DNA of 64,000 nt from an uncultured bacterium (GTDB lineage Bacteria > Krumholzibacteriota > Krumholzibacteriia > JACNKJ01): NCBI GenBank assembly GCA_963695095.1, contig CAVOFT010000001.1, positions 3,546,529 to 3,610,528 of the forward strand, given 5' to 3'. Below, piece after piece: positions 59,363 through 62,643 of the stretch (its first letter is position 1; each line of letters begins with the position of its first letter). The translations under genes were made by a program, and so were the position numbers. Below the pieces are notes generated by a model. That model was given only the letters and a program-made list of their open reading frames with translations. It was not told the DNA's origin and made no database searches.

Positions 59363-59406
59363 TTGACACAAATTTCACAAGAGCTAGATTGTGATCGATC
59401 GCTTAC
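59363..59406 (+). promoter_or_regulatory. Promoter and candidate operator of the TetR-cytochrome-rhodanese operon
   Basis: TTGACA-N16-TAGATT overlapped by TCACAA-N8-TTGTGA; imperfect palindrome GTGATCGATCGCTTAC at 59391-59406. Confidence 0.6.
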
Positions 59407-59441: not shown

Positions 59442-60080
59442 ATGGCCAAGAGCAGCGGAATGCAGACCGGCGGCTCCAGCCGCCGCCAGTGCCTGATCGC
59501 CTCCGCCAGCCGCCTCTTCGCCGAGCACGGCTACGAGGGCACGACCATCCGCCAGATCGCGCGCCAGTGCGGGATCACCGAGGCGGCCATCTACAAGCAC
59601 TTCGATGGCAAGGATCAGCTCTACGAGGAAGTGATCCACAGCAAGTCCCGCCAGCACGAGATCCGCGAACACCTCGCGGCGCAGACGGGGATCGCCGGCA
59701 TCGAGGACGTGCTCTTCCTGGTGGCCCGGCACATCCTGGCCACCGCGCGCGAGGACCCCGATCTCCTGCGCATGCTCCTCTACTCGAGCCTCGAGGGCTT
59801 TCGCGGCTCGACCTTGCTCTACCGCGAGTTCCGCCAGCCCTACATCGCCTACCTGCGCGAGGAGCTGCGCGAGCGCATTGCAAGCGCTGAGATCCGCCCG
59901 ATCAATCCCTTCATCACCAGCCGCTGCTTCGTGGGCATGGTGATGGACTGCGCCCTCAACGTCGAGCTGTGGAACAACCTGGAGAGCACCGCCTACTCGG
60001 CCGACGCGGTGATCCAGAACAACGTCCCCATCTTCGCCCGCGGCTTGCGCCTGGACGCCGCCGCCGAGATCGAAGCCTGA
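59442..60080 (+). CDS. TetR/AcrR family transcriptional regulator
   Basis: LFAEHGYEGTTIRQIARQCGITEAAIYKHF HTH. Confidence 0.92.
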   Translation: MAKSSGMQTGGSSRRQCLIASASRLFAEHGYEGTTIRQIARQCGITEAAIYKHFDGKDQLYEEVIHSKSRQHEIREHLAAQTGIAGIEDVLFLVARHILATAREDPDLLRMLLYSSLEGFRGSTLLYREFRQPYIAYLREELRERIASAEIRPINPFITSRCFVGMVMDCALNVELWNNLESTAYSADAVIQNNVPIFARGLRLDAAAEIEA

Positions 60081-60095
60081 GGAAGGAGAGCTGCC

Positions 60096-61505
60096 ATGCG
60101 CCGACTCCTGCCCCCCCTGCTCGTCCTCCTCGCCGCCGCCTGGCTCACGGGCTGCAGCGACGAGAAGACGCCGCCGGTGGCGGACCAGCCGACTGAACAG
60201 GACCCCTGCCTCGACTGCCATGGCGACAGGGAACTGCTGATGGCCATGCTGCCCGAGGAGGTCGCCCGCATCACCACGCGCGGCGACGGCTGAGGCGGCG
60301 ATGTGCCCGAGCTGGCAGCTTGGGAAGCGATCTACATCGGCGGCACGGATGGCGCGGCCTTCCTCGCAGATCCCAACCACGGCGCCGCGGCGCTGGCCTG
60401 CCTCGACTGCCACGGCGGCGACAGCGCCCAGGGCGACTTCGGGGACTACGCGGCCGAGCACGCGCTCGTGATCGCAACGCCCAGCGCGGCCGGCGCCTGC
60501 GACGCCTGCCACGCCGAGATTGCCGCCACGAACGCGAACAGCCTGCACACGAATCTCTGGGGCGAGAAGGCGGCGGTGGAGCGACGTGGCCAGTGCTCCT
60601 TCGACCAGACGCCCGCCGCCCAGGCCGGTTTCGCGCGCAACTGCGGCGACTGCCACACCACCTGCGGCCAGTGCCACGTGAGCCGGCCGCTCAGCGTGGG
60701 CGGCGGTTTCGTCGATGCGCACAAGTTCCGCCGCACGCCCAACATGACCGAGAACTGCACGGCCTGCCACGGCAGCCGCATCGGCCACGATTACACGGGC
60801 GAGGACCTGAGCGTGCTGCCGGACATCCATTACGCCCGCGGCCATGCCTGCGAACTCTGCCACTGGGCGGGCGAGATGCACGGCGACGGCCTGAGCACGA
60901 ACGCGTCCGGCCACTACGAGCACCGCTACGAGGTGGTCAGCATGCCGCGCTGCGAGAAGTGCCACGTGAAGGAGATCATGGACGAGGGCCACGCGGGCGA
61001 CCCCGAATGGAACGGCGACTACCACGCCGCCCACTGGGAGGGCTGGACGGGCGTGGAGCTGCAGTGCCAGGTCTGCCACAGCCAGCCCTACAAGAATTGC
61101 AGCTTCTGTCACGTCGAGGCGCCGTCGGGCTACACGATCGAGCCCAGCGTGCTGGCGCTCAAGATCGGCAAGAACACCGAGACCGACACGCGTGCCGAGT
61201 ACGACTACACCGTCGTGCGCCACGTCCCCATCCACCCGGATACCTACGAGACCTGGCCGCTGCCGCTGCCGGGCTACGCGGACGAAGCGACCTGGAAGTA
61301 CGCCTCGCCGCACAACATCCGGCGCTGGACGGCCCAGACCACGGTGGAGGCCGGGCAGAGCTGCGGCCGGAGCTGCCATGACAGCCCCGGCCAGGAGCGG
61401 GGCTTCTACCTGCGCGAGAGCGACCTCAAGGACGAGTTCGGCGTCGACCTGATCGACGCGCCGGCCAACGCGGACGTGGTGATTCGCGCGTCGGACTTGC
61501 ACTGA
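60096..61505 (+). CDS. Lipoprotein multiheme cytochrome c, probable selenoprotein (in-frame TGA 60291-60293; 469 aa if read through)
   Basis: AAGGAG RBS, lipobox LTGC; ORFs 60096-60293 and 60303-61505 share one frame; 10 CxxCH plus 1 CxxxCH; hairpin after the TGA. Confidence 0.8.
60291..60339 (+). promoter_or_regulatory. Bacterial SECIS-like element
   Basis: TGA, 12 nt, then stem CCCGAGCT-[GGC]-AGCTTGGG (60306-60324); possible lower stem CGATGTG/TACATCG. Confidence 0.72.
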
Positions 61506-61608
61506 ACACCGTCGCCGGTCCCGGACCGGCGGCCCGATCGTTGTGATGAGGAAGGGGCTCGCCCGACGAGCCTAAAACCGGGCCCTTGCCAGGGCCGAGA
61601 GAAAGCGA

Positions 61609-62643
61609 GTGAAAATGATGAAGCGATTCTGGGCACTCCTGCTCATCCCGATGCTGGCCGTGACCCTCTTCGTCGGCTGCTCCGACGACGATCCGGCCAC
61701 GCCCACGGATAACACGCTTACACCCCTCCAGGAGTTCACGGCCGTCGCCGACGCCGGCCTGGGCTACCTGAACAGCGCGGATGCGCCGGGGGTGAAGGAC
61801 TACACCTGGTTCTCCAGCCAGACCGGCGGCTTCGACGGCTTCACCATCCTGGATGTCCGCACGTCCATCGACTTCGGCAACGGCCACATCGCCGATGCGA
61901 TCAACACGAGCCTTGCCTCGCTGCTGGCCGACATCGACGCCGGCACGATCCCCGTGGACAAACCCTTCATGGTGGTCTGCTACACCGGCCAGTCCGCTGG
62001 CCATGTGGTTGCGGCCCTGCGCATGCTTGGCTACACGGCCTGGAGCTACAAGTTCGGCATGAGCGCCTGGCACACGTCGCTGGACGGGCAGTGGGAAGCC
62101 AACGCGGGCGCGGTCAACGGCGCGGCGATGGCCGATGCCGGCGTGGCCATCGAAACCGCGGTGAACACCCCGGTCACGACCTATGCCTGGCCCGACCTGG
62201 GTCTCACGGTGGACACGGCGGCCGAGGCCGTCGAAGCGCGCGTGGCCGCCACCCTGACCGCTGGCTTCAAGGCCCTGTCTTTCGCCGAGATGAATGCCTA
62301 TCCCGTTGAGGGGCTGGACCACTACTTCATCGTCAACTACTGGACGACGGACCAGTACACGGGAACGGATACCGACACGCCGGGCCACATCCCCGGCGCC
62401 TTCTGCTACGTGCCCAAGGTGGATCTCGACATGGCCGGGCTGCTGGAGTACCTGCCGACGGACATGCCCATCGTCGTCTACTGCTGGACCGGCCAGACCA
62501 GCAGCCAGGTGACCTTCGTTCTGAACTGCCTCGGCTACGAGGCCTACAGCCTGAAGTTCGGCGCCAACAACCTCTTCTGGAGCGCGCTGGGCACCAGTCA
62601 GTGGGTGGACAACGCGCCGGAGCACCCGCTGGTCACCAAGTAG
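61609..62643 (+). CDS. Tandem rhodanese-domain lipoprotein (sulfurtransferase)
   Basis: Lipobox FVGC; ILDVR..GHIADA..VVCYTGQSA and GHIPGA..VYCWTGQTS. Confidence 0.88.
   Translation: MKMMKRFWALLLIPMLAVTLFVGCSDDDPATPTDNTLTPLQEFTAVADAGLGYLNSADAPGVKDYTWFSSQTGGFDGFTILDVRTSIDFGNGHIADAINTSLASLLADIDAGTIPVDKPFMVVCYTGQSAGHVVAALRMLGYTAWSYKFGMSAWHTSLDGQWEANAGAVNGAAMADAGVAIETAVNTPVTTYAWPDLGLTVDTAAEAVEARVAATLTAGFKALSFAEMNAYPVEGLDHYFIVNYWTTDQYTGTDTDTPGHIPGAFCYVPKVDLDMAGLLEYLPTDMPIVVYCWTGQTSSQVTFVLNCLGYEAYSLKFGANNLFWSALGTSQWVDNAPEHPLVTK

Follow-up and report, generated by a model that had tools for sequence, protein, structure and literature searches.

A probable selenoprotein family of eleven-heme cytochrome c lipoproteins encoded beside a tandem rhodanese

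Known multiheme selenoenzymes and the present locus

Multiheme cytochrome selenoproteins have been an experimentally established enzyme class only since the description of MccSep in 2026. MccSep, the ExtKL protein of Geobacter sulfurreducens (GSU2937-2936), is a selenocysteine (Sec)-dependent multiheme enzyme that reduces polysulfide, and the gene for ExtH, a rhodanese-like lipoprotein, lies next to its own (PMC13510729; PMC5877670). The protein carries five hemes, and its selenocysteine, U325, lies in a C-terminal immunoglobulin (Ig)-like domain. There it is part of a D-G-U-P loop next to a His/Cys heme; it splits polysulfide, and sulfur respiration depends on it (PMC13510729). The subject of the present analysis is a gene at positions 60096-61505 of a 64,000-nucleotide stretch of DNA from an uncultured bacterium of the Krumholzibacteriota (assembly GCA_963695095.1, contig CAVOFT010000001.1; hereafter the window), in which an in-frame TGA is almost certainly read as selenocysteine within an eleven-heme cytochrome c lipoprotein. 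It apparently represents an uncatalogued family within this recently established class, a second and unrelated one with a larger body. The literature turned up in our search comprised the MccSep/ExtKL work and a 2026 selenoproteome review, and contained no description of an eleven-heme lipoprotein with an N-terminal Sec.

In both families, a multiheme cytochrome c contains one Sec whose UGA splits the annotation into two open reading frames (ORFs), a hairpin resembling a selenocysteine insertion sequence (SECIS) lies just 3' of the UGA, the tripeptide D-G-U is common, Cys-type relatives occur, and a rhodanese-like lipoprotein is encoded in the neighbourhood (ExtH in the case of Geobacter). The likeness of the latter to ExtH of the extHIJKL cluster is one of description and gene context (PMC5877670; PMC13510729), and the three-gene module found here has no ExtI-like porin gene. 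The cytochromes themselves are without detectable sequence relation, the ExtKL model NF040886 having no match to the locus at an E-value of 1. MccSep has five hemes and Sec at position 325 in its C-terminal Ig-like domain, whereas eleven heme sites and a Sec at residue 66 of 469, in an N-terminal loop, are found here; MccSep is soluble and periplasmic, whereas the present protein is a predicted lipoprotein; MccSep requires the heme-ligating Cys239, whereas no Cys outside the motifs is invariant here, the two families not being alignable. The MccSep homologue set is defined by five conserved heme motifs (PMC13510729), which argues against any overlap with the eleven-heme family. The original prediction, made from the letters of the DNA, had given MccSep fewer hemes and a more C-terminal Sec and had proposed a distinct family; both the comparison and the distinction hold.

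The second system of comparison is OTR of Shewanella oneidensis (1SP3; family TIGR04315). OTR has eight hemes, of which the catalytic heme 2 is Lys-ligated, a ligation of the active-site heme that Mowat is said to have described in 2004, and we know of no rhodanese partner of this enzyme. It is the best structural match of the body of the present protein and matches the family profile collinearly, whereas its family model TIGR04315 gives no match, its hemes number eight instead of eleven, and the N-terminal extension with heme and Sec as well as the lipobox are lacking. OTR is regarded as a structural outlier with an open-coordination heme in its N-terminal module, at which it acts on sulfur and nitrogen oxyanions (PMC9250108). 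ExtKL (NF040886), GSU2204 (NF041027) and the OTR type (TIGR04315) are the cytochrome selenoprotein families listed in PMC13188914.

One gene across the UGA

The two ORFs of the locus, 60096-60293 (65 codons plus TGA) and 60303-61505 (400 residues from a GTG start), share one frame; between them stand the TGA at 60291-60293 and the sense codons GGC GGC GAT and nothing else (context TRGDG-*-GGDVP), and the frame then stays open until the TGA at 61503-61505. The features are the following:

60083..60088, + strand: Shine-Dalgarno-like AAGGAG, 7 nucleotides (nt) before ATG 60096, read from the sequence
60096..61505, + strand: putative selenocysteine multiheme cytochrome c lipoprotein gene, 469 residues, Sec66, true stop TGA 61503-61505 (frame and homologues)
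60096..60155, + strand: predicted lipoprotein signal peptide, lipobox L-T-G-C, Cys20 codon 60153-60155 (lipobox-like x-x-[GAS]-C before heme motif 1 in 19/19 family genes)
60207..60221, + strand: heme-binding motif 1, CLDCH, residues 38-42, 5' of the UGA (C38, C41 and H42 invariant in the family alignment)
60291..60293, + strand: in-frame TGA, almost certainly read as Sec (U66), motif G-D-G-U-G-G (TGA in 18/19 and 77/80 homologous genes)
60306..60324, + strand: SECIS-like hairpin, 8-base-pair (bp) stem 60306-60313/60317-60324, GGC loop 60314-60316 (folding, covariation, recoding)
60369..61502, + strand: OTR-like multiheme body, residues 92-469, heme motifs 2-11 (structure match and profile to 1sp3_A)
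61362..61379, + strand: conserved CxxxCH site CGRSCH, residues 423-428, presumed eleventh heme (CxxxCH in 18/19 genes, CxxCH in one; C427 and H428 invariant, C423 in at least 90%)

The stretch 60096-61505 is a single gene interrupted by the TGA at 60291-60293 alone. The N-terminus encoded from ATG 60096, MRRLLPPLLVLLAAAWLTGC..., is followed by the lipobox, by CLDCH and then by the TGA, and the read-through product of 469 residues has eleven heme sites, ten of the CxxCH type and one CxxxCH. The part 5' of the UGA includes the AAGGAG box, the lipobox with Cys20 and the first heme site, whereas the 400-residue part 3' of it has no signal peptide and yet ten heme sites. As attachment of c-type heme depends on export, and the export signal is found in the upstream part alone, this speaks for the downstream ORF belonging with the upstream one. 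Frame, spacing, ribosome-binding site, lipoprotein signal, first heme motif and the missing downstream export signal had all been read in the same way in the original prediction; its count of ten further heme motifs also stands, except that nine of them are canonical CxxCH sites and one is CxxxCH.

By motifs and alignment, the product has the several CxxCH sites, matching distal His and export signal of a multiheme cytochrome c; the L-T-G-C20 box, with C20 invariant in 19 genes, predicts a bacterial lipoprotein, the Pfam model LPAM_1 staying below its cut-off on the signal region (E 0.19). Pfam otherwise reports generic c7/c3 repeats (Cytochrome_C7, 29.7 bits; Cytochrom_c3_2, 28.6 bits), both barely over cut-off, and NCBIfam assigns no family to the cytochrome. 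The TGA itself recurs in a public contig that matches the window at 100% over 60167-60327 and possibly derives from the source sample; the two public DNA runs contain only 0.06 of the sampled words, and their contigs give patchy cover of the stretch. A separate public contig (run X2, record 6; 217 nt, depth 3) fuses 60053 to 60167 and is without 113 nt, namely the end of the upstream tetR gene, the ribosome-binding site, the start codon and the signal peptide, its flanks being identical to the window; 10 nt at the joint fit either side, and a deletion variant in the population or an assembly artefact may be at its origin.

A six-frame search of 61 related genomes found a homologue in 21: 19 genes are complete and collinear across the UGA site, and the remaining two matches are contig-end fragments with one TGA each. 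In all 19 complete genes, the coding sequence starts with a lipoprotein signal, followed by the first heme motif; TGA occupies one and the same alignment column in 18 of them and TGG in one (genome G051), and the column lies in the motif [D/E]-G-U-G-G-x-[V/I]-P-x-[L/V]-E-x-W. Scanning species-representative genomes by pattern yielded at least 563 relatives; among the best 80 loci, all from public metagenome-assembled genomes, 77 have TGA (68 recognised by script and nine by inspection) and one each TGT (L086), TGC (L087) and TGG. There is partial overlap between the two sets, L031 being the contig of G008 and L055 being identical in sequence to L015. Frame and spacing around the TGA are constant in all homologues, at identities down to ~36%, and residues on both of its sides are conserved in the family alignment. 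In addition to L086 and L087, the Cys forms comprise 13 database representatives with Cys in the loop, as read from the printed segments; among the relatives without TGA, the column is filled by Cys (13), by His after Gly (G-x-G-H; four), by Trp (five, plus L015) or by others.

The homologues keep TGA or Cys at the site with fixed frame and spacing, the point that the original prediction had named as a check. The Sec had also been placed in a Gly-rich linker: Gly-rich the segment is, but the G-U-G-G loop is invariant and its Sec column is filled by Cys, His or Trp in relatives, so that a functional site seems more likely than a linker.

Gene callers give exactly the split expected of two genes, a 65-residue monoheme lipoprotein and a leaderless 400-residue cytochrome that starts at GTG 60303 behind the GAGG at 60292-60295 (7 nt upstream), or of one gene broken by mutation or assembly. 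Database entries seem to conform to this picture, as among the best 120 homologues 118 match no more than 85% of the length of the read-through protein and 33 of the 150 listed cluster representatives begin within a few residues past the Sec column. Neither version accounts for a TGA kept in the same place, frame and spacing in 18/19 and 77/80 homologues, for the conservation of its flanking residues, for Cys in its stead in two loci and at least 13 database representatives, for ten heme sites behind no signal peptide, or for the same TGA in the 100%-identical public contig. Because frame and spacing never vary, the two-gene, pseudogene and assembly-error readings are ruled out for practical purposes; we consider them barely credible. 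The GAGG is not needed as a ribosome-binding site for GTG 60303, since this very truncated call is what the databases show for relatives.

The second line of evidence for a single selenoprotein gene is the hairpin, which begins 12 nt 3' of the TGA and consists of the 5' arm CCCGAGCT (60306-60313), the loop GGC (60314-60316) and the 3' arm AGCTTGGG (60317-60324). A small apical loop that starts with G, ~20 nt after the UGA, is the hallmark of the bacterial SECIS in the bSECISearch model; by these criteria, the hairpin directly 3' of the UGA is of the SECIS type. The gene has 56 Ala codons (GCC 29, GCG 23, GCA 3, GCT 1) at a third-position GC content of 0.93, and GCA 60315 and the sole GCT (60318), two of its four Ala codons ending in A or T, are adjacent within the hairpin. 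The 8-bp stem survives in 0/200 synonymous recodings of this gene's stretch; for the 78 TGA genes, the median fraction of synonymous recodings with an equally long stem is 0.035. A contiguous stem of at least 6 bp is present in 60 of these 78 genes, the first loop base is G in 69, and in 67 the distance from the U of the UGA to the start of the loop is 20 or 23 nt.

Covariation is seen in two clades. In clade A (12 sequences), 93.8% of the cells are paired vs 26-54% with a slid partner, and one compensatory pair (CG in seven sequences, AU in five) has arisen via a double change from GAG/GCU to CCG/GCG; in clade B (six sequences), 100% are paired vs 44-58% with a slid partner, two pairs are compensatory, and the stem lies 3 nt nearer to the UGA than in clade A. 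On these alignments, the hairpin is conserved as a structure rather than as a sequence. The stem, its G-first loop and its rare codons had been described beforehand, and each of these elements was recovered, the stem to the exact position; conservation of the hairpin in homologues, named beforehand as a check, was likewise found. Rfam gave only chance-level rows near the UGA, and no curated model in it matches the hairpin. The Cys form L086 retains the full 8-bp hairpin with a GUU loop, possibly a 'fossil' SECIS after a recent change from Sec to Cys; the Cys form L087 has no hairpin.

The selA, selB, selC and selD genes, whose absence would have spoken against Sec, are present in the genome: selA scores 357.6 bits, the SelB wing domain 40.2 bits (cut-off 23.2) and selD 342.4 bits, and ARAGORN reports a tRNA-SeC(tca). 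Among five relative genomes tested, four of the TGA type and the Trp-form G051, all five have selA. The selD gene, outside the window at G000:C1:69142-70107, contains one in-frame TGA inside its TIGR00476 match and is hence of the Sec type.

Recoding need not mean Sec: a near-cognate tRNA for Trp, Cys or Arg could read through the UGA, and regulation of this read-through might then decide whether a short or a long product is made. Trp (TGG) at the column in at least six relatives, with at least five independent origins, would be in line with such read-through, and a hairpin in a GC-rich gene could merely slow termination. Such an origin is nevertheless very improbable, given that the hairpin bears the bacterial SECIS hallmarks and covaries, that the full Sec machinery is present here and selA in every relative tested, that Sec and Cys alternate in the classic manner of selenoproteins, and that the selD of the same genome has an in-frame TGA too. 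The conserved UGA, the Sec/Cys alternation, the covarying hairpin and the Sec machinery together support Sec at TGA 60291-60293, which we hold to be almost certain, and leave very little doubt that this is a real selenoprotein gene.

Some observations nevertheless weigh against this reading. The total folding energy is ordinary, both for this gene (z = -1.86 vs dinucleotide shuffles, +0.33 vs synonymous recodings) and across the 78 TGA genes (median z = -0.9), so that only the specific hairpin is distinctive; as the folding-energy z discriminates poorly in a GC-rich gene, the specific stem, the covariation and the register shift were taken as criteria. The contiguous 6-bp stem is missing in 18/78 TGA genes, most of which by eye have a 4+3 stem with one mismatch. 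Furthermore, the genome of one of the Trp forms, G051, retains selA, so that the Sec residue appears dispensable for some form of the protein. On a FastTree tree built from the body only, excluding the Sec loop (92 rows, including 39 truncated database calls of unknown state), six changes are needed to account for the six Trp forms, and well-supported branches force at least five of these; one Pro form is nested in a Sec clade. Loss of the Sec system was considered as the cause of the Trp forms and was rejected for G051 because of its selA; from the genomes compared, Trp is not simply an escape after such a loss. The TGG family member of G051 lies at L015:114-1628; in this sequence (also L055), the hairpin has decayed and the flanking Gly residues have changed to Ala and Val.

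Fold, neighbouring genes and candidate chemistry

A first AF2 model, from the 19-sequence alignment, was unusable (predicted local distance difference test score, pLDDT, 40.7) and was replaced by one from 92 sequences (pLDDT 87.1; predicted template modelling score, pTM, 0.84). In an all-against-representatives search, its best structural match is OTR, chain 1sp3_A (Z 8.9; root-mean-square deviation 4.1 Å over 258 residues; next Z 4.3), which spans residues 92-469 of the model and 1-432 of the chain, and the family profile matches 1sp3_A in collinear stretches at E 1e-11. By virtue of these two matches, the modelled body has the OTR fold and is distantly related to OTR, which has two hemes fewer; this body is set behind an extension of ~90 residues that carries heme 1 and the putative Sec loop. 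Other searches were less specific: Foldseek against the PDB gave no match (best E 1.2), a PDB profile search with the shallow alignment nothing below E 0.013, and for P0007, a homologue with a natural Cys in this place, the ESM Atlas listed nothing beyond generic 'cytochrome c family' clusters. In hmmscan at E 1, neither NF040886 (ExtKL) nor NF041027 (GSU2204) nor TIGR04315 (OTR type) matches the locus; genome-wide, NF040886 has matches elsewhere only (best 35.9 bits vs a cut-off of 250), and TIGR04315 (cut-off 375 bits) likewise matches elsewhere and not at the locus.

The cytochrome gene is flanked by two genes on the same strand, and a possible promoter precedes the first of them:

59363..59390, + strand: weak sigma-70-like promoter match before tetR, by consensus only (TTGACA-16-TAGATT, 10/12; one found vs 0.5 expected in shuffles)
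59442..60080, + strand: TetR-family regulator, first gene of the module, stop 15 nt before the cytochrome start (PF00440, E 1.2e-18)
61609..62643, + strand: tandem-rhodanese lipoprotein, start maybe ATG 61615 or 61618 (PF00581, E 1.5e-18, two stretches)

In 18/19 loci (all except L022), the gene immediately upstream, on the same strand, is a tetR homologue, with 43-80% identity in other genomes, the comparison including the window genome's own locus at 100%. A rhodanese homologue lies directly downstream in 18/19 loci, the contig of the nineteenth (L015) ending there; the partner gene follows the cytochrome stop by ~100 nt and has a C-x-T-G-Q loop in both domains. The outer neighbours, a CCA-adding-type enzyme and a fumarylacetoacetate hydrolase-family gene, are common only to the closest relatives, and the conserved module therefore comprises three genes: tetR, cytochrome and tandem rhodanese. 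The databases also contain cytochrome-rhodanese fusions, with the rhodanese at the C-terminus (P0063, 715 residues) or at the N-terminus (P0039, 455 residues). In L009, L013 and L014, tblastn finds a second rhodanese paralogue after the first. The spacer 61506-61608 (~100 nt) holds a GC-rich inverted repeat near 61512-61532, and a simple terminator scan of this spacer called none.

These elements could work together in the following manner: with the hairpin that begins 12 nt downstream as their binding site, SelB and tRNA-Sec would direct Sec insertion at the UGA 60291-60293 while the cytochrome gene is transcribed together with the upstream regulator gene. The product would leave the cytoplasm by the Sec pathway, receive its lipid at Cys20 and take up eleven c-type hemes, with Sec66, in its invariant G-U-G-G loop, standing between heme 1 and the OTR-like body. 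Periplasmic or membrane donors may feed electrons into the heme chain. The downstream rhodanese lipoprotein would act as partner, with sulfane sulfur, or else selenium, bound as a persulfide to its active-site Cys; at neutral pH Sec66 would be deprotonated and would attack the chalcogen-chalcogen bond, and a nearby heme would reduce the Se-S adduct, with release of sulfide. Candidate substrates are sulfane sulfur or polysulfide in the form of the rhodanese persulfide, tetrathionate, thiosulfate or selenite. This mechanism follows the logic established for MccSep (PMC13510729), and in TsdA, SoxAX and heme 2 of MccSep S-S chemistry is likewise performed by a residue that bears a chalcogen and lies at the distal face of a c-heme or next to it. 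One Sec-encoded eleven-heme lipoprotein that carries out Sec-dependent reduction of chalcogen bonds is, as an overall explanation, likely; the narrower assignment as a reductase of the sulfane-sulfur/polysulfide type, which draws on analogy, is tentative, and we give it slightly less than an even chance.

Sec66 may play yet another part. The family alignment has eleven heme sites vs ten invariant His outside the motifs, it contains no invariant Cys besides the lipobox, the heme motifs and the Sec column, and relatives have Cys or His in this column, an alternation with Sec that is typical of a metal ligand. A likeness to a His/Cys heme can be drawn from these sequence features, and Sec66 might then be the distal axial ligand of one heme, a natural His/selenolate c-heme that opens to attack the rhodanese-delivered persulfide; we regard this as possible, if rather doubtful. 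We know of no precedent for a natural selenolate-ligated heme. If Sec66 were such a ligand, the recurrent Trp forms, with their five or more origins, would be enzymes turned into plain electron carriers.

Two other chemistries have to be considered beside polysulfide-type reduction. The protein could be a tetrathionate/thiosulfate oxidoreductase like OTR or TsdA, in which the rhodanese handles thiosulfate and Sec replaces an active-site Cys or the Lys ligand: OTR is the nearest solved structure, rhodaneses are thiosulfate sulfurtransferases by family name, Sec forms are listed for the OTR family TIGR04315 (PMC13188914), and the Discussion of the MccSep paper relates Sec/His-Cys heme chemistry to the TsdA and SoxAX reactions run in reverse (PMC13510729). 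The failure of TIGR04315 to match the locus even at E 1, the three additional hemes and the Sec-carrying N-terminal extension, which OTR lacks, make this assignment unlikely. Alternatively, the module could serve selenium itself, in selenite or tellurite reduction or in selenium delivery with the rhodanese as selenium carrier. MccSep reduces selenite too (PMC13510729), the Geobacter ext cluster with ExtH and ExtI has been linked to selenite and tellurite reduction (PMC5877670), and the present rhodanese weakly matches, below threshold, the rhodanese domain of the selenouridine synthase MnmH (24.5 bits vs a cut-off of 266). Selenite is, on the other hand, the poorer substrate of MccSep (PMC13510729), the environment offers little selenium for use in respiration, and the MnmH matches reflect generic rhodanese similarity; a selenium module is accordingly a quite improbable alternative to chalcogen-bond reduction on sulfur.

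For the proposed reduction of chalcogen bonds by Sec66, three points count on the opposite side: the function is inferred from gene neighbourhood, a remote fold match and analogy; the Z-score of 8.9 barely exceeds the usual background of the aligner, 7-8; and the MccSep mechanism would not be transferable as it is, because no conserved non-heme Cys corresponds to C239 of MccSep.

Distribution and annotation

The relatives in at least 563 species-level genomes belong to Krumholzibacteriota, Calditrichota, Eisenbacteria, Gemmatimonadota, Phycisphaerae and others, and the protein databases contain 775 relatives at E <=1e-20. It had been expected that annotation pipelines would split the gene, and the databases indeed hold N-terminally truncated calls of its relatives. 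The only names found among them are 'hypothetical protein' and a 'thiosulfate/3-mercaptopyruvate sulfurtransferase' assigned by JGI; the latter, on truncated cytochromes, has perhaps been transferred from the cytochrome-rhodanese fusions. As a consequence of such truncated and mislabelled entries, selenoproteins are undercounted, and a probable enzyme of sulfur or selenium respiration is missing from metabolic reconstructions of these uncultured lineages of sediments and wetlands.

The constant pairing with the rhodanese offers a testable two-protein system, and it bears on the route by which insoluble or carrier-bound sulfur reaches a heme enzyme, a question left open in the Discussion of the MccSep paper (PMC13510729).

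Outside the window, the ARAGORN search of the same genome also returned a 'tRNA-???' with a four-base anticodon (gcat) at G000:C1:736525-736612 and an unusually long tRNA-Met of 98 nt at C1:2368409-2368506.

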